Assembly: GCA_965223265.1 (NCBI GenBank)
Contig: OZ244999.1
Location: forward strand, 3,296,001-3,360,000
Source: Planctomycetota bacterium
GTDB taxonomy: Bacteria; Planctomycetota; UBA8108; SXIK01
DNA length: 64,000 nt
Direction: 5' to 3'
Part shown: piece after piece, positions 2,478-27,829 of the stretch
Position numbering within the stretch: the stretch's first letter is position 1
How the letters are laid out: each line of letters starts with the position of its first letter
Translations under genes and position numbers: made by a program
The notes under the pieces: model-generated
The model's input: only the letters and a program-made list of their open reading frames with translations
Database searches by the model: none
What the model was told of the DNA's origin: nothing

Positions 2478-3977
2478 ATGAAGAACGACCATCAAGTGAG
2501 GCTTTTGATGTCGCTGACGAACGAAGGAGTGCCGCTGGAGAGCGCGGCGGCGCGGGCAGGTATGAGCGCCCCGACAGCAAGGAAATACCGAGATTTGGGG
2601 AAATTTCCGAGTGAGACTCGGGGGCAGAGGACCTGGCGGACACGGGATGACCCATTCGCTGAGGTGAGAGAAGAGATCGACGAGCTTCTGAGCGGCGACA
2701 GCGGGCTGGAGGCGAAGACGATCTTCGAGGAACTCGGGCGTCGTTACCCAGGTCGGTTTCGCCCGGGGCAGCTCAGGACACTGCAGAGGCGGATCCGCGA
2801 GTGGCGAGCGCTGAAGGGGCCGGCAAAAGAAGTATTCTTTCCGCAGCAGTGGCCTCCCGGAGAGCAAGGTCAGTCGGACTTCACCGACATGCGGACTCTG
2901 GGCATCACGATCGGCGGGCAGTCGTTTGGACATCTGTTGTACCACTTCGTTCTGCCGTACTCGAACTGGGAGTACGTGGACGTGGCGTACTCGGAGAGTT
3001 TCGAGGCACTGAGCCAAGGACTCCAGCGAGCGCTGCGTGAGCTTGGCAAGGTTCCCAGCGTGCATCGCACCGACAATCTTTCGGCCGCGACTCACAGACT
3101 GCGCGAGACGCGCGGTCGTGGATTCACGCAGCGCTACCTCGAGCTTCTCCATCACTACGGCCTCAAACCATCGAAGAACCGTCCGGGCAAGGCGAACGAG
3201 AACGGAGATGTGGAGTCGAGCCACAGGCAGCTCAAGCGGTCCATCGACCAGCGCCTGCGTCTGCGAGGTAGCCGCGATTTCGACAGCGTCGAGCACTACG
3301 TCGAGTTTCTCAGACAGCTCGTGCGCAAGCGCAACACTCACCGCGCAGAGCGAGTTCAAAAAGAGCTCGTGAAGATGCGCAGTCTTCCAGCGCGAGCGCT
3401 GGACTGCTTCCGCGAGCAAACGACGACTGTCTCACGCTGGAGTACGGTTCGCGTCGCAGGGAAGACATACTCCGTGCCGTCAAGATTGCGCGGAGAGCGA
3501 CTCAGAGCCCGCATCTACGCCGACATCATCGAACTGGAGTACAAGGGCAAGGTGATTGAGCGCATGGAACGTCTCAGAGCAAAGGACGCGGCACGGATTG
3601 ACTATCGCCATATCATCGCCTCGCTGGTGAGAAAGCCCGGCGCGTTTGAGCGCTACGTGTACCGCGAGGCGCTGTTTCCCAGCGTCGTCTTTCGTCGCGC
3701 GTATGACAGACTGCTTGAGAAGTCGGCTGGCCGCGCAGATCTCGAATACCTGCGGATCCTACAGCTAGCTGCTACGACGATGGAGTGTCGTGTGGAGTCG
3801 GCGCTCGCTCAGCTACTGGCAGAAGATCGCGTGCCCGATTACGGTTCGACGAAGGATCTTGTCGAGCCGAACGACTCCGCCGCAGCACCCCGAGTGACGG
3901 TCGCGGAACCTGATCTTCTCCTTTACGACAGCTTGATCGGATGGAGTGAAGAAGAGACGGAAAAGGAGGCGTCATGA
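2478..3977 (+). CDS. istA: IS21 transposase IstA
   Basis: N-terminal HTH with RTRDDPF, QSDFT, TDNLSAA, NENGDVE (DDE core) and YSVPSRL; ATGA overlap with istB. Confidence 0.95.
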   Translation: MKNDHQVRLLMSLTNEGVPLESAAARAGMSAPTARKYRDLGKFPSETRGQRTWRTRDDPFAEVREEIDELLSGDSGLEAKTIFEELGRRYPGRFRPGQLRTLQRRIREWRALKGPAKEVFFPQQWPPGEQGQSDFTDMRTLGITIGGQSFGHLLYHFVLPYSNWEYVDVAYSESFEALSQGLQRALRELGKVPSVHRTDNLSAATHRLRETRGRGFTQRYLELLHHYGLKPSKNRPGKANENGDVESSHRQLKRSIDQRLRLRGSRDFDSVEHYVEFLRQLVRKRNTHRAERVQKELVKMRSLPARALDCFREQTTTVSRWSTVRVAGKTYSVPSRLRGERLRARIYADIIELEYKGKVIERMERLRAKDAARIDYRHIIASLVRKPGAFERYVYREALFPSVVFRRAYDRLLEKSAGRADLEYLRILQLAATTMECRVESALAQLLAEDRVPDYGSTKDLVEPNDSAAAPRVTVAEPDLLLYDSLIGWSEEETEKEAS

Positions 3978-4753
3978 CCGAGAGCACACTCACGCTGCGA
4001 CTGAAGGCATTTCGGTTGCCGTCATTTCTCGGAAACTATCAAGATCTCGCCGAACGTGCGAAGAAGCAGGGCTGGAGCCACGTGCGTTACCTCGACGAAC
4101 TGGCGAATATAGAGGCGCAGGACCGCAAGGATCGCCGCATAGATCGCCTGAAGCGGCAGTCAAAACTGCCGCGGGATAAGACGCTCTCGACGCTGAAGCA
4201 GAGACGATTCCCCGCAGCGGTGAGAGGACAGATCAAGTCGCTATGCCAAGGCGACTTTCTTGAAGGCTCGACGAACCTGTGCATTTTCGGCAACCCTGGC
4301 ACGGGCAAGACGCACGTCATGTCAGCCATCGGGCATGAACTGGTGAACATGGGCCACACGGTTCTCTTCACAACGGCGTGCGAGCTCGTCGAGCGTCTGC
4401 TTGAAGCGAAGAGAGACCTGCGGCTCAGCAGGGAGCTGCGCAAACTCGACAACTTCGAGTGCCTGGCGCTCGACGACATCGGTTACGTGCAGCAAGACCG
4501 CTCGGAGATGGAAGTGCTCTTCACGCTCCTTGCCGAACGCTATGAGCGAAGGAGCGTGCTGATCACCAGCAATCTGGTCTTCTCGAAGTGGGATCAAATC
4601 TTCAAGGACGCAATGACGACCGCGGCAGCGATCGATCGCGTGGTGCACCATTCCGTGATCATGGAGCTGAGCGTTCCCAGCTTTCGGCAAGAGGTAGCGA
4701 AGAGTCGGACGCGAAGCTCACAGACCAAGGAGGACGAGAGACCAAAAGACTAA
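3974..4753 (+). CDS. istB: IS21 helper ATPase IstB
   Basis: Walker A GNPGTGKT, Walker B LALDDIGY, ITSN and AAIDRVVHH motifs. Confidence 0.96.
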   Translation: MTESTLTLRLKAFRLPSFLGNYQDLAERAKKQGWSHVRYLDELANIEAQDRKDRRIDRLKRQSKLPRDKTLSTLKQRRFPAAVRGQIKSLCQGDFLEGSTNLCIFGNPGTGKTHVMSAIGHELVNMGHTVLFTTACELVERLLEAKRDLRLSRELRKLDNFECLALDDIGYVQQDRSEMEVLFTLLAERYERRSVLITSNLVFSKWDQIFKDAMTTAAAIDRVVHHSVIMELSVPSFRQEVAKSRTRSSQTKEDERPKD

Positions 4754-15413: not shown

Positions 15414-18400
15414 TCAGTCGAACACGATGTAGGCGACTTGCTCAGTCGTGTGTTTGCGTTCGGAATCGCGGATTTGGTCTTCGTCGTACGCCAGATCAAG
15501 ACCAAGTGCCAGCGGCGCGGCTCCGTAGAGGATGGGCCAGCCACCATTGTTTCCATCCATACCTGCAGAGCTGATGATCGCCACGTGTGGATTCGGCAAG
15601 CCGAGTGCGTAGCGATACGGCGGGCTGTTGGTGACACCGCGAATCGAGTCGCCACCCAAAGCCGCTTCATAGTTGACCCCAGCAATGGATCCGGAGCCTG
15701 CCTCGATGACGATGTATCCGATGGTTTCGTCGGCGCGCGTGGTGATCGTGTCCTCGGCCACATGTTTACCCATGGCGAGGCTGCCGCTGGACGGTGGTGT
15801 CTTCGCGCCGCCGTTACTCGCCCAGAACATGGACCAGTTGATGTCGTTCTCGCTCATGACTTGACCCAGAACCACCGGATTCGTGTAGGTATTGAGATAG
15901 GAGCGGGGACCGGGCGTCCACGATCCTTGGCGGTCCGTATCTGTTGACGTGTACTTGACGGCTTCCATGGTGACGCCGTCAACAGCGGCTGTGTACACAC
16001 CCGCTTCGACCGCGACGTAGTGCACGGAGTATCCATTCAGCGCCGCGTCTCCGGGGTTTTGCACTTTCAGTTCGAAGCTGCTGCCACCGGCGTTTCGCAC
16101 GCGCGGCACCGCAGGTTGATCGCTTGCACTGTAGTTGACCGAGCAGACGACGACCATCGACTGAAACGACTGCTGCAGCGTCACGATTTGCCAGTTGCTG
16201 TCGACACCCGTGATCACACCAGTCTCCAGGGTCAAACCAGCGGGAGCCTGCGGCTGGGCGCTGGTTTCCTCGGAATCGAAGCTCTCGCCGCCCGTGTTCG
16301 AGGCGCTGACGACGTAGAAGTACGTCGTGCCGTTGTGAGTGTCTCCATCGTCATATGAGGTCGCCGTGACGCCCGTCGCGATCACCGTGAACGGGTTGGT
16401 GCCGGTAGCACGCTTGACGTTGTAAGTGTCTGCGCCAGGGGACGCGGTCCAGTTGAGCGCAACCGTTCCATCGCCAGCACTCGCGGTCAGGTCTATTGGA
16501 GGGACAGGAACTGCCGCCGGCTCGTCGTCGTCGATCTGCTCGAGGTAGGCGACGAGCTGAAGCTGCTGCTGGGCAGTGAGTGTGCTCGTCACACCGTGCA
16601 GGTCCGCGGAGTTCTGCGTCGTGATGACGTCCAGAAGAGAGCTCGCCGAGCCATCGTGAAGGTACGGCGCGCTGTTCCAGAGGCCCCGGAGCGTCGGTGT
16701 GTCGAGGCCCGTGAGGGGCTGACCGAGTCGCTCACCGGAGGAGGCCTTGATCGTGCCAACGTCGTGCAGCAGGAGCCCACTCGTTCCCACGGTGCTGTCA
16801 GTGAATTCCGTTCCGGCGTGACATAGCGCGCACTCGAGTTGCTGAAAGATCTGCTTTCCCAGCAGAGCGTCAGCCGTCAGCGTTCCGTCGCCGTTGCGAT
16901 GAGGGCTGAGGCCGCTCTCCGCCAGAGAGGTGACGTACGCGGCCAGTGCATCGAGATCGGCGCTCCTGCCGGCATTCGGAGCCCCAAGGGAACTGTTCGG
17001 TTGGCCGTTGATGAAACCCGTACCGCCGAAGGCGCCGCGAATGTCGAGTTCAAAGTCTTGGATCTCGTCAAAGTTGGCAGTCCAGTGGACGTTGCCGTGT
17101 CCTGTGCCAGCTCTTCTTGTCAGCGCGATCGTGTTACGCAGTCCTTCGCCGCGGTCGGTGAAGTCCCAAACACGACCATCTTCGCCGCCGTCGAGGTGGC
17201 AGGTGGCGCAGCTCAAGTAGCCTTGGAGAGTCATGCGCGTGTCGGCGGCGTTATAGAAGATCTGCTTCCCAAGGAGTACTTCGGGCGCGAGCAGCTCGGT
17301 ATCCACTGCATCGATCACAGCAAGCTCCGTGGCGCTTGTGCTTGTGCCGTTCGCCAGCCCGGCGATGTCGAACGCCGAAACGCTCCGCGTCATGAAGTTG
17401 AGCACGAACAGTCTCAGGCCGTCCGGAGTGACGACTATGTCCTGAGGTGCGAGTTCGCCGCCCAGCAGGATGTCTGTGACCGTGGAATTGTCGTAGGCGT
17501 TGAACACTCTGACGGCGTTGTTGCCTTGGTAGGCGATGAACGCGAGGTCGCCTACCGGTGAGAAGTCCACACCGTGCGGAAGCTCGTGATCGTCCACGTC
17601 GTGACGTTCGGTGAGTTCCTCGACGTTGGCGATCAGGTTCAGCTTCGAGAAGATGGACCGCACGGTGCTGTCCTGCGTCAAGACGATGCCGTCACGGAAG
17701 AGCCCTCGATCGGTATTGTCCTTCTTCGACGGCACCCAGAGCCGCTGTCCGTCGGGCGAGATGGCCATCTGTACAAGGTAGTTCGGCGTGCCGCGCCCTG
17801 AGAACTCAGAGTCTGGTGTGGTGTCGTGCGCCAGCGTGAATGTGCGTGTGACGGTAAACGTCGGAGCGTCCACCTCACGCACCTCGCCGACGAGCATGGG
17901 CGAGACGAAACGGCCGACGAAGATGCGGCCCGAGTCGGCAGAGATCGCGAGCGCTCGAGGCGCCGGTCCGACATCAAGCGTGCGGATTTGTGTGCGTGTG
18001 GCGGGATCCCACTCGGCGAGCAGGCCACCGTCCATGTACGTGACGTAGGCGGCGCTATCGTTCGACGCGAACGCAATCCCCATCGGCCGCGCGCCACGTG
18101 GCGTCGCGAGCACCTGGAGGGGTGCCCCGCTAACCGCATCCAAGACATAGATCTCGTCTGAGCTTTCGCAAGTCACCCAGATTTCGCTGCTGCCTGGACC
18201 CAATGCGAGGCTACGTGGCTCGACGCCAACGGGGATCTCGAAATCCTTGGTCAACCCAGCGCTGTCGATTCGCGTCACCGTGTTGCTGTCCGGATTGACG
18301 TTCCATACCTTGGAGCGGGCGGCGTCGTAGACAATCTGCGCCGAAGCGGTCGCTTCGCCTGGTGGTAACGCCAAGTGGACGATCTGTACGATCGTCGACG

Positions 18401-21400
18401 ACACGATCGTGGTGCCGTCGGTAACGAAACCGGTGACGGTATATCGACCCGGAGCACCGTAGTTGTGAAGCGCCGAGATCGACGGCGAGTACGGTGTCTG
18501 AGGTGTGCCATCGCCGAAGTCGAACGAGTAGGTGAGCGGGTCAAGGTCCGCATCCGATGCACTTGCCGTGAACGTGACGTCGGCGCCGGTTGGAGCCGGG
18601 TTCAAAGATGATGCGACGGACGCGATGACCGGTGGACTCAGAGTCGTCGCTGTCGCCTCGGCGGAGTCGGCACTCTCGCCGGCGACGTTGATCGCGCTGA
18701 CGACGTAATAGTAGGTCGTGCCGTCATTCAAATTCGTGTCGATGAAGTTCGTCTCGACAGTGTTGGCGATCGATGCATACGGTCCGCCGGTCGTCCCGCC
18801 GCGTTTGATGTTGTAACTCTCCGCACGTTCCGAAGCGCTCCAGTTGAGGGTCACCTGGAGGTCGCCGCCGGCAGCCGTCAGATTGGTCGGCGCCTCCGGC
18901 GGTAACGTCTGTTCGTCGAACACGAGATAAGCGACTTGCTCGGTGGTGTGGGCGCGGTCGGTGTCGCCGATGACGTCTTCGTCAATGGCGAGGTTGAGGG
19001 TCGTGCCCGCCGGATTGGCGCCATAGAGCATTGGAATGCCGCCGTCGCCGCCGTCCATGCCCGCGGCGCTGACGATGGCGGTGCGTGGGTTCGCGAGACC
19101 GCTCAGGGCATACGCGTACGGCGGACTATTCAAGAATCCCTCAACGGTGTCACTGCCTACAGCCGCCGTGAAGGGAAGCCCAGCCAAGACGCCGGAGCCG
19201 GACTCAATGACGATGAGCCCCACGGTCTCATTGGCGCGGGTCGTGTTCGTATCCTCACCGACGTGTTTGCCAACGCCGAGTGAAGTTGCTGTCGGCGGAT
19301 TCCCTTGGCTGCCATCGCTGGCCCAAAACACCGACCAGCTGACGTCGTTTTCCGACATCACTTGGCCGACAACGACCGGGTTCGAGTATCCATTCTGGTA
19401 GACCAAGTCTTGGTTGAGCCAAGAACCCTTGCGCGCCGTAACCGCAGAGGTCAACTTCACGGCTTCAAGAGTGACGCCCTCGATGGCTGCTGTGTAAACA
19501 CCCTCCTCGACCACCACGTAGTGAACGGCGTAACCCGAAAGTGCGTTACCACTGGGGTTCTGGACGCGGACTTCAAAGCTGTTACCGGCGGCGTTTCGCA
19601 CACGCGTGACGGCAGTCGCCTGTCCAGCGCCGTAGCTAGCTGAGCAAACCACGACCATCGAGTCGTAGGTTTGCGCCAACGTCACCGTTTGCCAACCGCT
19701 GCCAACGTTCGAGAGAACGCCGGTGAGCAGCTTGATGGATGGTGCTTGCGGCGTCGCGCTCGACTCGTTTGAGTTACCGCTCTCGCCCGCTGGGTTGACC
19801 GCGGTGACGACATAGTAGTAGGTCGTTCCGTCCGTCAAGCCGGTATCGAGAAAGCTCGTGCCGGTGAGGGAGAACGCGATCACGCTGTAGGGGCCGCCGC
19901 TCGTTGTTGAACGATAGACGTTGTACTCGGCCGCCAATGGCGACGCGCCCCAGGTCAGGCTCACCTGTGTGTTCCCGGCGATGGCGCTGAGCGCTGTGGG
20001 CGGACTCGGGGGCGGGTTCGGTGTGGCGCTTGCCTCGGACGAGTCGGCGCTCTCGCCGGCGCCGTTGAGCGCGGAGACGACGTAGAAGTAGGTGGCACCG
20101 TTCGTCACCGAGTTGTCCGAGTACGAGGTGCTGGTGACCGAAGCGACAAAGCCGTAAGGACCGCCGGAGACGGTAGCGCGTTTGACGCTGTAGCTCGCGA
20201 TGGTGCCGGACGGTGCGCTCCAAACGAGGTCGACGACTCCGTTTTTTCCTGTCGCCTCAAGGTCGGAAGGAACTCCCGGTGGCTGCAGCGTCGGCGTTGC
20301 GCTCACTTCGGCGGACTCCGGGCTTTCGCCGATGAGGTTCGCGGCGGTGACGACGTAGTAGTATGTCGTACCGTTGACGACGCTCGTGTCGGTGAAGCTG
20401 GTGCTCGGCAACCCAGGTGCGATCGTCGCGTAGGGACCACCGGCGGTGGTGGCGCGTTTGACGTTGTACGTGGTCGCGCCGCTGGCGATGTCCCACGTCA
20501 GGATGACTTGGGCGTCGCCTGCGCTCGCCGCGAGCCCGGTGGGTGCTGGCGGTGGCTGGTTAGCAGCGGCTGGGGTGACGAGTATCCACGGTGCCGCGGC
20601 AGGGATGCCGTTCGTATCAATTAGGAACAGCATGTAGTGCCCCGGCGGGCACTCCGTCGGATTCGACGGCATGGTCACGTCGAGACCACCGGCGACCTCG
20701 GTGAACGCCAGCTTGTTGATGCGCTGGTTCATGTTCTTGGTGTGGGTGACCGCCGACGGCCGGAGCAGGTTGACCTGGGCGATGCTCGCGGCATCGGGCG
20801 TCCCGACGAAGAACGTATCGCTGAGCGCGACGCTCGCTGGTGAAGTGGCGACGGTCGGTCGCGTCCCTTGGAAGAGGTACGGCGGTGAGAAGACCTGCAG
20901 CGTTGGGTGGCCGTCGCCGCCGATGCTCGCGACACGCCCGTCCGGCAACAGCACGGCTTCGGAGTGGTAGCCGCGATATTCGGCTTCGGTGGCCCACGTC
21001 GTCCAGTTGTCCGCCACCGGATCCCAAACGATGGCTGGCTTCGGACCATCTTCTGTGTTGAAGCCACTCGAACTGCTACCGCCGATGACCAGGACTCGTC
21101 CGTCCGGCAGGATCGAGACGTCGTGTTGGCGACGGACCTGCGGCATGGGAGCGACAAAGCTCCACGTCGGCGTCGGCGCGTTCAAATCGATGACTTCGCA
21201 CGTCGCGGTCGGCGCGTCGGCGCCGCCGGTGTAGATCACCTTGCCGACTTCGTACATGCACGCCGAGCCGTAGTTGTCGCGGCCGCTCTCCTGACGCGTG
21301 GCGCTCGTTGTCCAGGTTCCCGTCCCGGAGGTGTCGAGAAAGCGCGACGGCGATGTGGCGACGAACACCTGTCCGGACGGCGCGAGGAACGCGGCCGGAA

Positions 21401-21971
21401 ACAGCGGCAGATTGAGCGAAGCGCCGGTCAAACGGCGCCAACCGTTGTTTGCTACTTCCCACACTTCGGGGAATAGATTCTTGCTACCATCTTCGAGCCG
21501 GCCGGACATCGTCACGATGTCGCCGTTCGAGAGCGTCACAAGACTTGGGTACCACCGACCCCCTGCCATGTCAGGGACCCAATTGAACGTGTCCGTCGTC
21601 GGGTCGTAGTACGTTGCGTTGGGGAGGCCCGTGCACCCGGGGATGTGCCCGCCTGTGAAGAAGACGCGACCGTCTGCCAAAAGTGTGTGGCCGCCGCAGA
21701 ATGCGTCATAGCCATGGTCCGCCGTATCGATGAGCGTCTCGGTGATCGGGTCCCACTGCCGCTGATCGGTGTTGGCATACACCATGATGTTGCCGGTGGG
21801 CAGGAGAATGGAGTGGACCGGCCGCCAGGGAAGCGCATGGACGGCGCCCCATTGCCCTTCGACCTCGGGTTGGGCATGGAGCTGGCGGGAATCGGCGCCA
21901 CCGAGGGATAGCGCGACCAGGAGACAAAGAAAACGCGTACGGACACAGCACAGCACATCGGTGATGTTCAT
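15414..21971 (-). CDS. Giant secreted multidomain protein (~2185 aa): AA5 galactose-oxidase-like + DUF1929, 5 FN3, 2 lectin-like repeats, PKD, YVTN propeller, di-heme cytochrome c peroxidase-like domain
   Basis: Oxidase ligands FCGG, RWYPS, RGYHS, VTHT; PPGHYMLF; heme motifs CATCH (17196-17210) and CALCH (16818-16832); APYLHDGS; FDFGDG (PKD). Likely start is ATG at 21971. Confidence 0.9.
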   Translation of the reverse strand: MNITDVLCCVRTRFLCLLVALSLGGADSRQLHAQPEVEGQWGAVHALPWRPVHSILLPTGNIMVYANTDQRQWDPITETLIDTADHGYDAFCGGHTLLADGRVFFTGGHIPGCTGLPNATYYDPTTDTFNWVPDMAGGRWYPSLVTLSNGDIVTMSGRLEDGSKNLFPEVWEVANNGWRRLTGASLNLPLFPAAFLAPSGQVFVATSPSRFLDTSGTGTWTTSATRQESGRDNYGSACMYEVGKVIYTGGADAPTATCEVIDLNAPTPTWSFVAPMPQVRRQHDVSILPDGRVLVIGGSSSSGFNTEDGPKPAIVWDPVADNWTTWATEAEYRGYHSEAVLLPDGRVASIGGDGHPTLQVFSPPYLFQGTRPTVATSPASVALSDTFFVGTPDAASIAQVNLLRPSAVTHTKNMNQRINKLAFTEVAGGLDVTMPSNPTECPPGHYMLFLIDTNGIPAAAPWILVTPAAANQPPPAPTGLAASAGDAQVILTWDIASGATTYNVKRATTAGGPYATIAPGLPSTSFTDTSVVNGTTYYYVVTAANLIGESPESAEVSATPTLQPPGVPSDLEATGKNGVVDLVWSAPSGTIASYSVKRATVSGGPYGFVASVTSTSYSDNSVTNGATYFYVVSALNGAGESADSSEASATPNPPPSPPTALSAIAGNTQVSLTWGASPLAAEYNVYRSTTSGGPYSVIAFSLTGTSFLDTGLTDGTTYYYVVTAVNPAGESGNSNESSATPQAPSIKLLTGVLSNVGSGWQTVTLAQTYDSMVVVCSASYGAGQATAVTRVRNAAGNSFEVRVQNPSGNALSGYAVHYVVVEEGVYTAAIEGVTLEAVKLTSAVTARKGSWLNQDLVYQNGYSNPVVVGQVMSENDVSWSVFWASDGSQGNPPTATSLGVGKHVGEDTNTTRANETVGLIVIESGSGVLAGLPFTAAVGSDTVEGFLNSPPYAYALSGLANPRTAIVSAAGMDGGDGGIPMLYGANPAGTTLNLAIDEDVIGDTDRAHTTEQVAYLVFDEQTLPPEAPTNLTAAGGDLQVTLNWSASERAESYNIKRGGTTGGPYASIANTVETNFIDTNLNDGTTYYYVVSAINVAGESADSAEATATTLSPPVIASVASSLNPAPTGADVTFTASASDADLDPLTYSFDFGDGTPQTPYSPSISALHNYGAPGRYTVTGFVTDGTTIVSSTIVQIVHLALPPGEATASAQIVYDAARSKVWNVNPDSNTVTRIDSAGLTKDFEIPVGVEPRSLALGPGSSEIWVTCESSDEIYVLDAVSGAPLQVLATPRGARPMGIAFASNDSAAYVTYMDGGLLAEWDPATRTQIRTLDVGPAPRALAISADSGRIFVGRFVSPMLVGEVREVDAPTFTVTRTFTLAHDTTPDSEFSGRGTPNYLVQMAISPDGQRLWVPSKKDNTDRGLFRDGIVLTQDSTVRSIFSKLNLIANVEELTERHDVDDHELPHGVDFSPVGDLAFIAYQGNNAVRVFNAYDNSTVTDILLGGELAPQDIVVTPDGLRLFVLNFMTRSVSAFDIAGLANGTSTSATELAVIDAVDTELLAPEVLLGKQIFYNAADTRMTLQGYLSCATCHLDGGEDGRVWDFTDRGEGLRNTIALTRRAGTGHGNVHWTANFDEIQDFELDIRGAFGGTGFINGQPNSSLGAPNAGRSADLDALAAYVTSLAESGLSPHRNGDGTLTADALLGKQIFQQLECALCHAGTEFTDSTVGTSGLLLHDVGTIKASSGERLGQPLTGLDTPTLRGLWNSAPYLHDGSASSLLDVITTQNSADLHGVTSTLTAQQQLQLVAYLEQIDDDEPAAVPVPPIDLTASAGDGTVALNWTASPGADTYNVKRATGTNPFTVIATGVTATSYDDGDTHNGTTYFYVVSASNTGGESFDSEETSAQPQAPAGLTLETGVITGVDSNWQIVTLQQSFQSMVVVCSVNYSASDQPAVPRVRNAGGSSFELKVQNPGDAALNGYSVHYVAVEAGVYTAAVDGVTMEAVKYTSTDTDRQGSWTPGPRSYLNTYTNPVVLGQVMSENDINWSMFWASNGGAKTPPSSGSLAMGKHVAEDTITTRADETIGYIVIEAGSGSIAGVNYEAALGGDSIRGVTNSPPYRYALGLPNPHVAIISSAGMDGNNGGWPILYGAAPLALGLDLAYDEDQIRDSERKHTTEQVAYIVFD

Positions 21972-22252
21972 GGCTCGCTCTCGTTGACGAAAAGAGGAGG
22001 TATGAAATGCCCCATGGTAGGTCGTAGCGCGACGTGCAGTGGGGGGAAGGGTGCACGACGTCGAGCGACCAATCTTCGAACCCAAGCGAATATCCTATCA
22101 TCCGAGGTGATCAAAACGCCGGATGTTTCTTCTCCGGCGACGCTCGATGACCGGTCCCGAGACGTTAACGTTCACCGAACGTCACCATGGCCGCTAAGTG
22201 GCACGCTTGAGCGGGGTTCGGCCTTGCCGTTTCGCTCTGAGCTTCGGAGCGG

Positions 22253-22304: not shown

Positions 22305-22729
22305 ATGACCGCCGGTCACGTCGTCCACCGCACGAAGAAGAACTCATCAATGCCACTTTCGTGGCCGTGGATTCTCGTTCTCGTCGGTAGCGCCGGCGTA
22401 CTCGGTTTGGCCTTCGTGACTCTAAGTCGCGCGCTCCAGTCGGCGGAAGGGGCAGCACGTGTCGAAGCAGCGCGGTCTGCCGCAGACGTTGCCCGTGGAC
22501 TCCGAGTGGCACTGTCGGAGCCGGATTTTCTGGAGATCGTGCCGGTGGAGAGGCGGTTTGTCGTTGAAGAAGGCCGCGTCCAGATCCCTCAAGAAGTCGC
22601 CTGGCTCGAGACGCCGATGCCAGTGACGTATACAGACAATCTGGAAGCGCCGATCGGTGAGCTCGTCCGCGAAGCTCGGCGCGCCGAGTCCGTCGACGCC
22701 GACCGGGCAGCGGCGCTGGAATTGCTAGA
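22305..22729 (+). pseudogene. Sensor histidine kinase, N-terminal part (TM1 and start of periplasmic domain), interrupted by the RIT element
   Basis: TM segment WPWILVLVGSAGVLGLAFV; the frame rejoins 26248 onward as ...ALELLEKAQTLAR... Confidence 0.85.
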
Positions 22730-22853
22730 TGAGTGATGTGGAGCTCCACATCACTCATCACATGGGGAGTTCGGAGTTATGTGGAGTAGCGGACGCCTGT
22801 CTCGACCGGAGGCGCTTCGGCGCGTTGGGACTCTCCATAAATCGGCCGCGCGT

Positions 22854-23873
22854 CTACAGCGATCCGAGCCACGTGAGAAGGTCCGGATCGCGTTGCCACG
22901 ATCGGTCCTTCTTGCTCTCCGGAAGCTGATTGGCCTTCTCGAGGGCGCGCCGCTTCATGTCCAGGTCGGCCTTCGCGTAGATCTGGGTGCTCTGGATGTC
23001 CGAATGACCGAGGAAGTCGCGGATTACGACGGCGGGGTTGCCGCTCTGCAAGAGGTGCATCGCCTTCGTGTGGCGTAAGGTATGAGGAGTGATCTTCTGC
23101 GGTAGCGTCGGGCACTCGACTCGAGCGGCCTCGCTGTACTTGGACAGAAGATGTCGTATTCCCCATCGGGAGAGACGGTTACCCGCCCGGTTCACGAAGA
23201 GCGGTTCGTTCGCCTGTTCGGGACGATCGAGAGCGTGCTCCTTGACGTACTCGCCGAGGTTGGCAGCCGTTCCTTTCATGAGCGGGACGACGCGGATCTT
23301 TCGCCCCTTTCCAGTCAAGCGCACCTGCGGAGGGGAGGCGAGACGAAGGTCCGCGATCGAGAGATCGATCAACTCCTGCACGCGAGCTCCTGTGTCGTAA
23401 AGCAGACTCAACATGAGAGCGTCCCGGCGTCCCTGAGGCGTCGTTGAGTCTGGTTGTCTCAGGATCGCGGCCAGTTCTTCGACTGACAGGTAGGTGGGTT
23501 CAGTCTGCGCTATGCGCCGAAGCGGGATCGCGAGAATGCGTTGGCAGTGTTGAATCCGATCCGGCTCCTCGACTTGGACGTACTTGAAGAAAGAGTGGAA
23601 TGCGGCGAGGCGATGGTTTCGAGTTCGGGTTGAAGAGCCGCGCTCCTTCTCGAGATGCCCGAGAAACTTCACGATGAGAGACGCGTCGATCGCTTCCAGC
23701 GACAGGCGCTCGATGCGCATCTCGCAGACCTCACGGCAGTAGCGCAGCAGCAACACGAACGCATCGCGGTAGCTCTTGATCGTGTTCGGACTGAGACCTC
23801 GCTGGGATGGGAGGTACTCGGTCAGGAAAGAAGTGAGTCGACAGGCGAAGTCGGTGGGTTTCGCGATCGTCAT
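22854..23873 (-). CDS. ritC: RIT tyrosine recombinase C
   Basis: SPNTIKSYRD; catalytic GARVQE, GKG, HTLRH, LGH, TQIY. Confidence 0.92.
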   Translation of the reverse strand: MTIAKPTDFACRLTSFLTEYLPSQRGLSPNTIKSYRDAFVLLLRYCREVCEMRIERLSLEAIDASLIVKFLGHLEKERGSSTRTRNHRLAAFHSFFKYVQVEEPDRIQHCQRILAIPLRRIAQTEPTYLSVEELAAILRQPDSTTPQGRRDALMLSLLYDTGARVQELIDLSIADLRLASPPQVRLTGKGRKIRVVPLMKGTAANLGEYVKEHALDRPEQANEPLFVNRAGNRLSRWGIRHLLSKYSEAARVECPTLPQKITPHTLRHTKAMHLLQSGNPAVVIRDFLGHSDIQSTQIYAKADLDMKRRALEKANQLPESKKDRSWQRDPDLLTWLGSL

Positions 23874-24850
23874 GAGGTTCTGCTCCCGCTCGGAATGGCA
23901 TGACCGCAGACGGCTTCGAGCCGTTCCGTGACGTTGGTGAACAGGCTCTCGGTCATCTGGAGGTAGACCTGGGTACCGTGCATGCAGCGGTGGCCCATGT
24001 ACGACGAGAGCAGCGGCAGCTTCGCGTTCAAATCCACACCCTCCGCATACCAGTTCTCGAGCCGATGTACGGCAAAGGAATGGCGAATCTCGTGGAGACG
24101 AGGGCCGCGTCCGCGACCGTGGTGTGGAATGCCAGCGGCTCCCAAGAGCTTGCGGAAAATCGTGTACACGCGCCCGGAGGAATACGCGCCGCCGCGCGGG
24201 GACGGGAAGAACGGCTGTCCAGGCTCGCGGGGGTCGAGTGCTTCGGCGTACCTACGAAGCCGCTCAGTCAAGCCGGGAGCGATGGGAACAAGGCGGTCCT
24301 TGCGAAACTTGCCTTCGCGAATTCGAAGGACTCCGTCCACGAGATCGACGTCTCCGACTGTCAAGCGAAGAGCCTCTCCTCGGCGAAGACCGCAGCCGTA
24401 GAGCACGCGGAAGAGTTCCGGGATCACGAGATGATAGAGAGGCGACCATCGACAGGGGGCGAGGTCGTCAGCTGCCTGAAGGATCTTTGCGATTTCCTCC
24501 CGGCTGAAGATGCGCGCCGTGAATTCACGACGTGTACCGCGCCTTGGATTCAGGGGCGTAACGTAGGCCGAGCAGCCTTGCCGACAGAGGAAGATCGCCA
24601 GTTGACGAACGATCGTCAGCCGCATGCGCTGCGTCCTGGGACGTTCATCGGCGCGCGCGGCGGTCCAGTCCTGTACGAGGACTCTCGGCAGCTCCCGGCG
24701 TTGAAGCCCTCGAGCAACGAGGAAGCTGTCCAACGCTCGCAGAAGGTACTCCTCCCTCTCATAGCGGTATCCACAGCCGCGCTTCTCCTCGAGGAACTTC
24801 ACCATCAGATCTCGCACGGGACTGCGAAACGCTGACTGTTCGCTACCCAT
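23870..24850 (-). CDS. ritB: RIT tyrosine recombinase B
   Basis: GLRRGEA, GKFRKDRLVP, HEIRHSFA, MGH, TQVY; ATG at 24850 overlaps the ritA stop. Confidence 0.92.
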   Translation of the reverse strand: MGSEQSAFRSPVRDLMVKFLEEKRGCGYRYEREEYLLRALDSFLVARGLQRRELPRVLVQDWTAARADERPRTQRMRLTIVRQLAIFLCRQGCSAYVTPLNPRRGTRREFTARIFSREEIAKILQAADDLAPCRWSPLYHLVIPELFRVLYGCGLRRGEALRLTVGDVDLVDGVLRIREGKFRKDRLVPIAPGLTERLRRYAEALDPREPGQPFFPSPRGGAYSSGRVYTIFRKLLGAAGIPHHGRGRGPRLHEIRHSFAVHRLENWYAEGVDLNAKLPLLSSYMGHRCMHGTQVYLQMTESLFTNVTERLEAVCGHAIPSGSRTS

Positions 24851-26102
24851 GGAGCACCTCCTCGGGGTCGAGAGCGACGCAATGCAGAGCTTCCAGGTCG
24901 AGACTCGTATAGAGCCTGGTCGACTCGACCGAGGTGTGTCCGAGGATCGCCGCAATCGTCTCGAGCGGTTCGCCAGCCCGGAGGAGACGTGTGGCTAGAG
25001 TGTGACGAAGAGCATGGAGGCCGCGTCGGGTCTCCGCAGGCAGAGGCGTCTTCAGGCCGCTGAGGTGAGAAGACACGATGGTGACGAGATTGTTTCGCTC
25101 CCCGAGAGGTGCCACCGGAGCACGGGTCTTCAGAAACACCTGGCGATAGCTCGTCGCCGGCCGGCCGTGTTGGAGGTAATCGATGAGTGCGTCGGCGACG
25201 TCGTCCTCGAGGGGGAGCGTCAACGGCTGACCTGTCTTCGACTGACGAAGGTCAATGCGACCGTTCGACCAACGGATGTCGTCGAGACGCAACGTCCGAA
25301 TGTCGCTGGCTCGAAGGCCGAAGCGGCAAGCGAGGAGAAGGATGGCGTAATCTCGTTTGCCCTGTGTGGTGCTACGATCCACAGCGGCGAGGAGTTCCTT
25401 TACCGCGCTTGCCGGCCAGACGGACGGAAGCCGACTCTCCTTCGCGAAGCGGATGGGAACCCATTCATCCGCCACCTTCGGTTCGACGATCCCACGCATG
25501 CACAGGTAGCGGACAAAGGACTTGAGCGCTCCTGATACGGCGGCGAGCGACGGAGGACTCAACTGCGTGAGAGAGTCGAGAAAATCGCAGAAGTCGCGCG
25601 TCCTCAGTCCTCGCAAGGCGGAGATGCCTCGAGGGTTGAGGAACTGAAAGAACTGGACGACCACTCTTCGGCGCTGCGCGACGGTGCAGGGGCGATGTCC
25701 GAGGTGCTCACGGCAGAAGGCCTCGTAGGCCAGTAGCTCGGCCGCGATCGTCTTGGCGAAGACCGGCTCGGGAAGCCGCTTGCGGTACGGCCGAAAGCTG
25801 CCGCCTTCGGCGAACTCCGTGAGGATCCGCAGCGCCTTGAGCAGCTCGACCTCACGCCAGCGTAGCTTCCCCTGATCAGCGTCGGAGCTGATCCCGTGGT
25901 GAGCCAAGAACCGACAGACGAGTTCGGACGAGAACGCGCGCCGCTTCGACTCTCGAGCGAACTCGAGAAGCTTGTTCCACGAATTCCGATAGTACCCGAC
26001 AGTTCGTCGGCTGTAGCCGAGACCTTCGAGGTGGCGAAGAGCAGCGGCGACGAGGCCGCTGAGTGACGATCTGCCTGGGAACGATTCAGCTTTTTCGATC
26101 AT
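24843..26102 (-). CDS. ritA: RIT tyrosine recombinase A
   Basis: GKRDYAI, GLRASDI, QSKTG, HALRH, LGH, TRLY; likely start ATG at 26102. Confidence 0.92.
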   Translation of the reverse strand: MIEKAESFPGRSSLSGLVAAALRHLEGLGYSRRTVGYYRNSWNKLLEFARESKRRAFSSELVCRFLAHHGISSDADQGKLRWREVELLKALRILTEFAEGGSFRPYRKRLPEPVFAKTIAAELLAYEAFCREHLGHRPCTVAQRRRVVVQFFQFLNPRGISALRGLRTRDFCDFLDSLTQLSPPSLAAVSGALKSFVRYLCMRGIVEPKVADEWVPIRFAKESRLPSVWPASAVKELLAAVDRSTTQGKRDYAILLLACRFGLRASDIRTLRLDDIRWSNGRIDLRQSKTGQPLTLPLEDDVADALIDYLQHGRPATSYRQVFLKTRAPVAPLGERNNLVTIVSSHLSGLKTPLPAETRRGLHALRHTLATRLLRAGEPLETIAAILGHTSVESTRLYTSLDLEALHCVALDPEEVLHG

Positions 26103-26247
26103 GGTCGATCTCCCGATTTGAGGGGCACCCACCGCGGGTGCTGAGGAGACCGACGCTACCGGTTTATGGGGAGAGCGAGAACTGGAACGTGTTGTAAAGC
26201 AACGACTTCACTCCGCTACTCCACATAACTCCGAACTCCCCATGTGA

Positions 26248-27829
26248 GAAAGCGCAGACACTCGCGCGCAATGGGAGCAGCGATGCGCAGCAGCAGTTGT
26301 GGTTGACACTCGCGTCAGGGCATGTCGCGAACCGCCACGGAGATGCCGCGCGACGTGAAACGCTATTTGGCGAAGCCGCGCACATGACGGCGCAGTTGCT
26401 GCGCGAGGGTGACGTCGACAGCGAACTCGTGTGTTCCTTAGTGCTGCTGGCGGCGCATGTGCAGAGCAAGTTACCTGAAGAGCTTGTCGCCGCTTTCGTC
26501 CGGACGCCGCCCCAAGCCGCCCGTGCGGTGCTGTCACGCCTGGAAGAATTGACAGGCACTGAGGCTTTCACGCCGCAGCAACTTGAGGCCTTGCGTACGC
26601 GCGTCGACGGCGTCGCGGCGCGCCGTGCGATGCTCCGTCAAGCGCGCGAGGTATTGCCGCGACTCTTGGAGCCGCTGAGGCCGTCGCCGCAGAGCACCGG
26701 CGAACACGTGATCTTCTACGTGCCGCATTCGGACATGTCCGGCGCTGGGGCAATTCTGCCGGCCGTTGAGCTCACGTCTCTGATCGAAGCGCAGCGCCTG
26801 GGGCAGGGCGGGGACGGGGCCGGCGGCGCGACGCATGGTCCGCTCGCGGGGGTTGCCGCACGCGGCCGGCTTGCGGTCGGCCCCGAGGCGGTCGCCGCCG
26901 AGGCAGTGCTCGTGATTGAGGGCATCGCCGTGGTTCCCGAGCCGGCCGTCGGAGCTGCAGCGGCTTCAACCTGGGTCGTGCCCATCGTTCTCGCGGCGCT
27001 CAGCGGTTTCGTTCTCGTCGGGGTGGTTTTGTCGGCGCGTGCGATGCGGCGTGAGCGACTCGCCGCGCAGGCTCGAAGCGATTTTCTCACCGCTGTGACC
27101 CACGAACTCAAAACTCCACTGGCGTCCATTCGCCTACTCGTGGACGTTCTGCGCGACGGGCGCGCGAGCGAAGGACAGCGCGCGAAGTACCATCGCACGC
27201 TGGGAAGCGAAGCGGCGCGACTGACGATGTTGGTCGAAAACGTGCTCGATTTAGGGCGCCTTGAGCGCGGCGAGCGCGCCTACGACAAGCGTCGTGAAGA
27301 AGCGAGTGACGTGGTCTTCGAGGCGCTCGAGCTCTACGAGCCCTTGGCAGCCCGCGATGGCCTCCACGTGGAGCTGCGTCCTTCCGCAGCGCCGGTTGCG
27401 CTCGAGGTCGATCGCCATGCTGTCGTGCAAGTGCTTTTGAACCTGCTCGAGAATGCGCGGCGCTACGCTGCAGGGGGAAGTCGAGTCGAGGTGACAACAC
27501 ACGTCGAGGGCGGCCGGTATTTCGTCGACGTTCGCGACTTCGGCCCAGGGATTCATGCCTCCGAGCGCGACAGTGTGTTCGAGAAGTTTGCGAGCGGCCA
27601 GGCAGCAAGCGACGGTGGCAATCCGGGCGTCGGGCTGGGACTCTTTCTCTCGCGGACGATCGTACACGATCATGGGGGGGACTTGGTCGTGGTGGAGCCG
27701 CCCGATGGAGGCGGCGGCGCATGTGTTCGGCTCAGCTTGCCGGTAGCGCCTGAGCAGGTCCCGCGCATTGATTCTGCCGCCTTCGCATCGCAGACGACCG
27801 AGCCAGAGAAAGGACTGCCGTCGGCATGA
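26248..27829 (+). pseudogene. Sensor histidine kinase, C-terminal part (TM2, HisKA, HATPase)
   Basis: VTHELKTPL H-box, NLLENA N-box, DFGPG and GVGLGL; frame open from the RIT end. Confidence 0.9.

Follow-up and report, generated by a model that had tools for sequence, protein, structure and literature searches.

How a transposon that carries a perfect palindrome outside only one of its two terminal inverted repeats leaves one site and enters another is the question raised by this locus, where such an element splits a histidine-kinase gene within the window (the whole 64,000-nucleotide stretch of DNA analysed). RIT elements, to which it belongs, are common and split genes, other transposons' genes among them; according to the relevant part of PMC10214605, their mobility has never been reproduced in the laboratory. 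PMC3414803 (section 11) already mentions a palindrome adjoining a RIT end. The RIT literature covered offers no mechanism for RIT movement, and a fuller description of the end structure may exist in Ricker et al. 2013 or in the supplements of RIT papers. The genome considered here defines the ends to the base and supplies three recent insertions, a circle junction that could be reconstructed and a crossover-spacer rule, which turns RIT movement into an assayable question; its three identical copies, with the palindrome on opposite ends, point to how RITs are excised, inverted and re-inserted.

The element holds Rit genes only, three in number, between its repeats (Table 1). All three open reading frames lie on the minus strand, match PF00589 (2e-20 to 2e-33) and keep the R...HxxR...Y residues, with GLR/GAR, HxxRH, GH and Y conserved in six of six aligned sequences. 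In a one-directional comparison against one reference trio, that of plasmid pHG1, identities amount to 39.6 % (A-A), 48.3 % (B-B) and 58.2 % (C-C), with cross matches at or below 31 %. By these alignments the genes appear to be orthologues of RitA, RitB and RitC in the order A-B-C, in agreement with the original prediction of a RIT element. They overlap by 8 bp (ritA/ritB, 24843-24850) and 4 bp (ritB/ritC, 23870-23873). The flanks are separated by 3518 bp and the terminal inverted repeats are perfect over 36 nt, which fits the RIT norm of ~3.5 kb and ~30-35 nt.

The 36-bp repeats had been noted at 22758-22793 and 26212-26247, and they are confirmed there with 100 % complementarity, the second-best pair of that 5-kb stretch measuring 30 nt at 70 %. 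Likewise, GA is present at both junctions (22728-29 and 26246-47) as described, and the reuse of a repeat sub-motif by the 28-mer was recovered, 12 of 13 positions matching between 22731-22743 and 22774-22786. The 28-bp palindrome outside the left repeat (22730-22757) is real as well, but its limits have to be redrawn: it is contained in a zero-loop palindrome of 32 nt (16-nt arms, 22728-22743 and 22744-22759), and the constant unit is a 20-bp palindrome, B'B, with two 6-bp spacers.

Table 1. Features of the RIT element in the window and of the gene it interrupts
Feature	Position	Strand	Basis
5' piece of interrupted histidine-kinase gene (left flank, ends ...TTGCTA)	22305..22727	+	ORF; colinear with 3' piece on single relative ORFs
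Outer 6-bp spacer GATGAG beside palindrome (s_Bflank)	22728..22733	.	Copy comparison; GTGCGG in copy 2
B'B, constant 20-bp palindrome, back-to-back 10-bp arms TGATGTGGAG / CTCCACATCA	22734..22753	.	Identical in 3/3 copies
Inner 6-bp spacer CTCATC (s_in), between B and left inverted repeat	22754..22759	.	10-6-10 core with B and arm A'
Left terminal inverted repeat (IR-L), ritC end; outer arm A' 22760-22769, inner motif 22777-22786	22760..22793	.	
ritC, 339 aa	22854..23873	-	PF00589 2.3e-33; 58 % identity to pHG1 RitC, C-terminal extension common to both
ritB, ATG at 24850 (mechanical ORF reaches 24955)	23870..24850	-	PF00589 3.3e-20; 48 % identity to pHG1 RitB
ritA, 429-aa ORF from GTG, likely ATG 26102	24843..26132	-	PF00589 2.1e-27; 39.6 % to pHG1 RitA over 417 aligned positions
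Right terminal inverted repeat (IR-R), ritA end; inner motif 26219-26228, outer arm A 26236-26245	26212..26245	.	
Right 6-bp spacer GAGAAA (s_Aflank)	26246..26251	.	Copy comparison
Target hexamer GCGCAG, immediately after right spacer	26252..26257	.	Common to 3/3 insertion sites
3' piece of interrupted histidine-kinase gene, HisKA + HATPase_c	26252..27829	+	Profile matches; alignment to relatives

The element occurs as three copies, 100 % identical, in a 9.18-Mb single-contig genome. A genome-wide count gives exactly three palindromes and three inverted-repeat pairs, and a whole-genome search returned no solo palindrome. A search of 40 relatives for element DNA gave no real match, only two chance-level fragments. 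Each copy lies in a different ORF, and removal of the element at the spacer boundaries restores the frame over 671, 318 and 183 codons, respectively. For copy 1, the one in the window, two relatives have single ORFs (686 and 703 aa) to which both histidine-kinase pieces align colinearly; relatives read EE (G001) or LK (G005) at the junction, which does not single out the native flank spacer. In the target of copy 3, retention of a single GATGAG yields the Walker-B string VIVFDEAQ, and the downstream piece matches the AAA_22 profile at positions 91-130 from its first residue (E 2.7e-4, below the Pfam cut-off). For the gene split by copy 2, no homologue was found in 58 other genomes of the class; neither the donor-derived flank spacer nor the direction of descent among the copies is fixed for copies 1 and 2.

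Every copy follows the layout flank, 6 bp, B'B, 6 bp, inverted repeat, genes, inverted repeat, 6 bp, flank. Copies 1 and 2 carry B'B on their ritC side and copy 3 on its ritA side, so the predicted occurrence of the palindrome on either side is borne out. GCGCAG, which has a genome frequency of 7.2e-4 per position and strand, adjoins the spacer in all three targets, and with respect to it the polarity of insertion is the same each time, the body alone being flipped in copy 3. The alignment of further genomic copies, proposed originally as a check, thus finds the palindrome switching ends, but neither a constant 28-mer (20-22 nt are constant across the copies, the outer nucleotides belonging to the variable spacers) nor targets that share GA/TC only. 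Similarly, the notion that about 2 bp of target identity are needed agrees with copies 1 and 2, where the flank spacers coincide in the first 2 nt only (GA or GT), but not with copy 3, where they agree at 6/6 positions; since GCGCAG is common to all three targets, target choice involves more than 2 bp.

In each of the 13 elements parsed, the edges of the spacers are where constant sequence gives way to variable sequence. The two flank spacers are identical in eight of these and differ in five, with identity extending from the arm-A side over 2, 2, 2, 3 and 4 nt; in none of the five do both of the last two positions match. A fixed rule as to which spacer stays with which arm was considered and dropped, because a heteroduplex expects both outcomes and informative events are too few; in a genome with a pHG1-family RIT (G439), the native hexamer stands beside the palindrome.

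Evidence for the form in which the element travels comes from comparison of copies 2 and 3. The right end of copy 3, IR-R-GTGCGG-B'B-CTCATC, and the left end of copy 2, GTGCGG-B'B-CTCATC-IR-L, have 32 identical nt in common, the odd spacer GTGCGG included. The simplest reading is that the two ends, taken together, represent a fossil circle junction composed of IR-R, spacer, B'B, spacer and IR-L; such a junction would hold two equivalent 10-6-10 cores resembling dif, in line with the circle junction with two symmetric cores that had been predicted. Joining 26212-26247 to 22730-22793 does produce the predicted perfect palindrome of 100 nt, but only for this one choice of the copy 1 spacer; six positions are non-self-complementary with the right-hand spacer, and eight in a junction of the copy 2/3 type. 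Neither a circle junction nor an empty site was found in the 31-mer contigs of four public runs from one study, a test that is blind because every 31-mer of the predicted junction is already contained in copy 2 or 3 and the 36-nt inverted repeat exceeds the word length. The element, a RIT transposon, is probably active or recently active, three identical copies in as many split genes being indirect evidence of transposition, and it probably exits as a circle, integrates via either core and inherits its spacers from site to site.

In this probable scheme the excised circle would join IR-R (arm A) to IR-L (arm A') through spacer, B'B and spacer, and each of the two resulting cores would consist of 10-bp arms around a 6-bp crossover region. 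Integration could use either core; the plain arm A would come to lie beside the GCGCAG-bearing side of the target, and the palindrome beside the opposite side. Core choice would set both the orientation of ritABC and the palindrome-bearing side, the unused core being left intact within the element end. The 6-bp spacers would be exchanged with a 5' stagger; the 2 nt nearest to arm A would have to match and heterology would be tolerated beyond them, so that spacers would be carried between sites, as in SE and Tn554 elements. More speculatively, two of the three recombinases might work as a pair of the XerC/XerD type, acting on arms A and B, and the third might act on the inner motif of the repeats or on the target. 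The most far-reaching reading, advanced with somewhat less than even confidence, is that RIT elements carry a built-in spare crossover site. B'B would act as a second arm pair, spacer identity of about 2 bp together with a short adjacent motif would suffice in the target, the unused core would permit later inversion, the spacers would record the previous site, and the three recombinases would share out the tasks.

The architecture extends to distant RITs, namely those of pHG1 (palindrome on the ritA side) and Burkholderia RPE67 p2 (ritC side), and to 13 of the 17 loci fetched from the phylum. Another genome (G303) contains two copies, identical at 3326 of 3327 positions, which carry the palindrome on different sides and show the same pattern of inherited spacers. 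RitC-like genes are present in 22 of 400 other genomes sampled from the phylum, and RitA-like matches occur on 618 plasmid records. In metagenome contigs the 20-nt palindrome matches two short contigs, where it lies beside related RIT-like ends with no second end, and a 27-nt word of the inverted repeat gave 0 matches. RITs of the pHG1 family have the catalytic-tyrosine codons of integrase genes as their targets. Where they adjoin the spacer, the arms of many RITs read ..CATAA / TTATG.., an ending which we take to resemble that of dif arms. Other arrangements exist as well. One RIT (L059) has perfect inverted repeats and a palindrome at neither end, which counts against the proposed model. One element is bounded by a palindrome on either side, and palindromes unaccompanied by a RIT occur on a C. 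oxalaticus plasmid and in a further genome (G438); the model needs extra steps for these.

A change of palindrome side could also arise from a single integration mode followed by inversion of the gene block between the terminal repeats, either site-specifically (inner core B-spacer-A' with far end A-spacer-flank) or by homologous recombination across the 36-nt repeats. The constant target polarity of all three copies, with only the body of copy 3 reversed, speaks for such an event, as does the Paraburkholderia draft genome G439, in which four junction contigs join the same two flanks to both orientations of a pHG1-type RIT and one orientation has s_in equal to s_Aflank (TATTGC), as predicted by site-specific inversion plus replication. 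However, these contigs could reflect two insertions in identical target copies, and the equality of s_in and s_Aflank, a signature expected from standard tyrosine-recombinase chemistry, is absent from copy 3 (GTGCGG versus GATGAG) and from G303 C30 (TGTGAT versus TGCTGG). By homologous recombination, the odd spacer GTGCGG would have to arise independently across the junction, and any form of inversion still depends on the circle and the spacer inheritance set out above. We therefore regard later inversion as an unlikely source of the flipped copy.

Far less probable is a linear molecule with hairpin ends, or a cruciform, in which the palindrome would derive from a hairpin end that is replicated and resolved at its centre in the manner of a telomere resolvase, as suggested by Nielsen et al. 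2017. RITs are enriched in exonuclease-treated DNA with no detectable circle junction, according to the portion of PMC5737581 concerned, the palindrome is perfect and loop-free in many families, and the copy 1 junction can form a perfect palindrome of 100 nt. Yet paired-end mapping across perfect repeats of 30-50 nt would miss circles anyway, the constant/variable breakpoints lie at the outer edges of B'B in every parsed junction and never at its centre, B'B is intact in all cases, and the junction of copies 2 and 3 is not perfectly palindromic. Nor does any finding favour the cruciform or hairpin intermediate by which the original prediction had the circle move. That the palindrome is host sequence, a pre-existing target or an assembly fold-back is scarcely credible and was rejected: the solo palindromes and the element with two of them would suit a host origin, but in this genome the identical 20-mer lies in three unrelated genes, the frames are restored only without it and there are zero solo copies, while its presence at three loci, together with contigs from four public runs (possibly the same data as the assembly source) that span the palindrome and its joins, disposes of the artefact against which the original prediction had guarded.

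With the RIT elements of Cupriavidus metallidurans CH34 and C. necator pHG1 (ritABC; Van Houdt 2009/2012), the present element has in common three overlapping genes in the order A-B-C, a size of ~3.5 kb, terminal inverted repeats of ~35 nt, identical multiple copies per genome, a palindrome overlapping one end, and 40-58 % protein identity to the pHG1 trio. It differs from them by its perfect repeats and its arm sequence (xxATGKGGAG) and, in contrast to the pHG1 family, it inserts into ordinary genes, where GCGCAG adjoins the spacer.

SE (strand-biased circularizing integrative elements), GInt and Tn554 are likewise transposons driven by several tyrosine recombinases. Their circle joint, as a section of PMC10214605 describes it, comprises two inverted motifs around a 6-bp spacer, which travels from the old to the new site as a 'fingerprint/footprint'. 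Spacer inheritance is suggested here too, GTGCGG occurring both at the flank of copy 2 and at the inner site of copy 3, with a similar case in G303 and the direction not fixed. Whereas one core is found at the joint of these elements, the predicted RIT joint has two that share a back-to-back arm pair; their large recombinase and small fourth protein (Srap, GinD or TnpC) are absent here, and, unlike in SE, no strand bias is demonstrable in this RIT. The RIT would thus work like this group in spacer inheritance and is not a member of it.

The dif core of XerC/XerD is described in a passage of PMC5357621 as a pair of ~11-bp half-sites showing partial dyad symmetry and a 6-bp central region, and the corresponding part of PMC8138268 places Rit proteins with the simple, Xer-like tyrosine recombinases. 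The predicted 10-6-10 cores resemble dif in geometry, whereas the RIT is a mobile element rather than a chromosome-dimer resolution site, employs three recombinases, and would have two back-to-back cores with tolerated spacer heterology. The coupling sequences of Tn916 and CTnDOT offer another likeness, namely integration by a tyrosine recombinase in which heterologous overlap sequences accompany the circle; in CTnDOT only ~2 bp need to be homologous, on the side where strands are exchanged first. In contrast to the RIT, both elements are large and conjugative and rely on one integrase with accessory factors and arm-type sites, and neither is known to have perfect terminal repeats or a spare core. 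If the RIT does carry a spare core, its tyrosine-recombinase transposition would follow a pathway that differs from those of ICEs, SEs and Tn554.

The element that splits a histidine-kinase gene in the window is 3.5 kb in size, carries terminal repeats of roughly 35 nt and is a member of the known RIT family. Between the repeats lie three minus-strand ORFs, each found in a domain search to harbor a Phage_integrase domain. Their best matches to the reference ritABC trio of the C. necator plasmid pHG1 are RitA (39.6 %), RitB (48.3 %) and RitC (58.2 %), with cross matches to non-cognate pHG1 proteins of at most 31 %, and alignment with this trio revealed that all three proteins retain the R, HxxR, GH and Y positions. 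The ritA/ritB overlap amounts to 8 bp, taking the ritB ATG listed in the table, and the ritB/ritC overlap to 4 bp. Gene overlaps, size and repeat length agree with the RIT features described in passages of two published accounts (PMC3414803; PMC10214605). A repeat search confirmed the perfect 36-nt inverted repeat noted earlier, the runner-up pair in the surrounding 5 kb being 30 nt at 70 % identity. The 28-mer palindrome noted earlier lies inside a longer, loopless palindrome whose arms are 16 nt each and matches the repeat sub-motif that it was said to reuse at 12 of 13 positions. The GA dinucleotides at both junctions and the symmetric core pattern CTCCACAT-N10-ATGGGGAG are likewise legible in the sequence.

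The whole genome, a single 9.18-Mb contig, contains three copies of the element that are 100 % identical, and its palindromes and repeat pairs likewise number exactly three each; a search of this contig for solo palindromes found none. Comparison of the copy ends reveals that the constant extra piece is a 20-bp palindrome, B′B, whereas the six nucleotides on either side vary. The 28-mer is therefore not the constant unit. Its anticipated occurrence at either end does apply to B′B, which is found at the ritC end in copies 1 and 2 and at the ritA end in copy 3.

Coordinates of features and ends of the three copies. A, outermost 10 nt of the inverted repeat (CTCCCCATGT); B, right-hand half of the B′B palindrome (CTCCACATCA); prime, reverse complement. 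Numbers without a locus or contig name refer to the window.
Feature	Coordinates	Ends
Copy 1	~22728-26251	TTGCTA-GATGAG-B′B-CTCATC-A′...A-GAGAAA-GCGCAG
Copy 2		CTCCTT-GTGCGG-B′B-CTCATC-A′...A-GTTGCC-GCGCAG
Copy 3		GCTGCGC-CTCATC-A′...A-GTGCGG-B′B-CTCATC-GAAGAC
Inverted repeat, copy 1	22758-22793 / 26212-26247	
Zero-loop palindrome, copy 1	22728-22759	
ritB ATG, copy 1	24850	
2223-codon ORF (-)	15414-22085	
AAA_22-like target gene, upstream of copy 3	C1:2473490-2473633; L003 1341-1475	
Solo palindromes	L018 ~4501-4535; L087 ~1495-1527	
Miniature RITs	L086 (G437:C58) ~520-985; L109 (G441:C69) ~1380-1840	
Metagenome palindromes	L076 ~650-710; L077 ~1290-1355	

When the element is taken out at the boundaries of its spacers, ORFs of 671, 318 and 183 codons are restored for copies 1, 2 and 3, respectively. 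Both pieces of the copy 1 target align colinearly with one uninterrupted ORF in each of two relatives (686 and 703 aa), and the copy 2 target gene features an FTP propeptide motif. For copy 3, keeping exactly one GATGAG yields VIVFDEAQ, so that the target hexamer is identical to the inner spacer of the element; from its first residue on, the piece downstream aligns with the end of the AAA_22 profile, a hit (E 2.7e-4) that falls short of the Pfam cut-off. Only 43 codons separate the previous stop from the Walker-B motif in this AAA_22-like gene, which may have been truncated earlier or may belong to a different mobile element. A minus-strand ORF of 2223 codons ends a short way upstream of the split histidine-kinase gene.

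The right end of copy 3 (IR-R-GTGCGG-B′B-CTCATC, IR-R being the ritA-end repeat) and the left end of copy 2 (GTGCGG-B′B-CTCATC-IR-L, with the ritC-end repeat) are identical over 32 nt comprising spacer, palindrome and spacer. Combined, they give IR-R-GTGCGG-B′B-CTCATC-IR-L, as would be expected from circularizing copy 2. This junction contains two same-arm cores, A-N6-B′ once per strand. Integration through the first core would leave B′B at the ritC end, and integration through the second would leave it at the ritA end. The two symmetric cores of the original prediction thus reappear, in a junction that is itself predicted. Contigs of four public sequencing runs showed no physical circle, a comparison blind to it because copies 2 and 3 already supply every 31-mer of the predicted junction. 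The 100-nt junction palindrome also proposed is perfect as joined, but only for copy 1 and one choice of spacer: the alternative spacer introduces 6 breaks and the copy 2/3-type junction contains 8 palindrome-breaking positions. A special status of the perfect palindrome is not supported, and neither is a hairpin intermediate. Van Houdt et al. (PMC3414803) had already mentioned a palindrome that overlaps one RIT end. Nielsen et al. (2017; PMC5737581) report RIT enrichment in a mobilome, state that the circle junction was not seen and propose hairpins; according to Idola et al. (2023; PMC10214605), RIT transposition has not been reproduced in the laboratory.

Besides integration via either core, inversion of the gene block had been envisaged. 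By established chemistry, tyrosine recombinases cut either strand where the spacer begins on its 5′ side. With such cleavage, if the inner core and the far end recombined site-specifically to invert the block and replication followed, the inner spacer and the arm-A flank spacer would become identical. This signature is missing in copy 3 (GTGCGG versus GATGAG) and in a RIT on contig C30 of another genome, G303 (TGTGAT versus TGCTGG), which makes direct integration via the second core the simpler history for both. Inversion nevertheless seems to occur at other loci. In the draft genome G439, four junction contigs of ~250 nt (L088, L090, L092, L094) tie the same two flanks to both RIT orientations, and one orientation of this pHG1-type element displays the predicted signature (TATTGC twice). 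Alternatively, the contigs could stem from two insertions in identical target copies; G439 would thus represent either such a pair or a culture that was polymorphic for the inversion when sequenced.

The same architecture is found in other RITs. The pHG1 element reads flank-TAGCGC-B′B-GCGCTA-A′...A-TAGCGC-flank, with B′B at the ritA end, and a 92.7 % identical element on Burkholderia RPE67 p2 carries B′B at the ritC end. The finding made in the window is repeated in G303, whose two copies (3326/3327 identical) bear B′B on opposite sides and have the odd spacers TGTGAT and CCAGCA in common. Among 17 loci fetched from 25 non-own RitC places in the phylum, 13 bear a loopless palindrome where the element ends (ritC 8, ritA 4, both ends 1, L063). 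In ten of these it is perfect and measures 20 nt or more, while L064 has 2 mismatches in 26 nt and L070 is imperfect; no end palindrome was found at the other four (L059, L068, L072, L073). Twelve further genome-contig loci include four with a palindrome (L019, L021, L023 at both ends, L026) and eight where it is missing, most of them distant or cut. Palindromes at both ends occur in L023/L082 (P. elongata) and L063, and L059 (genome G048) has perfect 36-nt repeats with a palindrome at neither end. Unequal exchange between opposite-type copies could conceivably generate both forms.

Solo spacer-B′B-spacer units lacking an adjacent RIT were encountered at L018, whose right flank is homologous to the RPE67 insertion flank, and at L087. 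Two miniature RITs of ~430-470 bp (L086, L109) consist of two ends and the palindrome, devoid of recombinase genes, and are possible non-autonomous derivatives. Two metagenome contigs (L076, L077) contain the identical 20-bp palindrome, but the outer arms and spacers beside it differ (GTCATAA / TATGAC and GACGAG / CTCGTC); within this lineage, conservation appears stronger for arm B than for arm A. Elements of the pHG1 RIT family (L015, L016, L017, Paraburkholderia loci) almost always reside within tyrosine-recombinase genes, at the codons of the catalytic ..TTxRY motif, and their spacers all begin with TA, which is located on the strand opposite the tyrosine codon.

Three spacers (A-to-flank, flank-to-B′ and inner, read from arm A towards B′) were surveyed in 13 elements of six families. 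The flank spacers are identical in eight (copy 3, pHG1, RPE67, L026, L060 with its A side read by eye, L061, L065, L071) and unlike in five (copies 1 and 2, G303 C21, G303 C30, L062). In these five pairs, identity from the arm-A side extends over 2, 2, 2, 3 and 4 nt, and in no pair do the final two positions agree together. In 7 of the 13, the inner spacer is unlike the flank spacers. GCGCAG adjoins the spacer on the arm-A side in all three targets of this genome, where its frequency is 7.2e-4 per position and strand; as two further fixed-offset matches would arise by chance at ~5e-7, target choice involves more than the ~2 bp of identity initially thought sufficient. Taken together, the three fresh copies provide unusually direct sequence evidence for a double-core circle, use of either core and inherited 6-bp spacers. 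The spacer pattern fits a 6-bp exchange region in which a match would be needed only on the arm-A side, and CTnDOT provides a parallel for exchange that depends on a match on one side of the crossover region.
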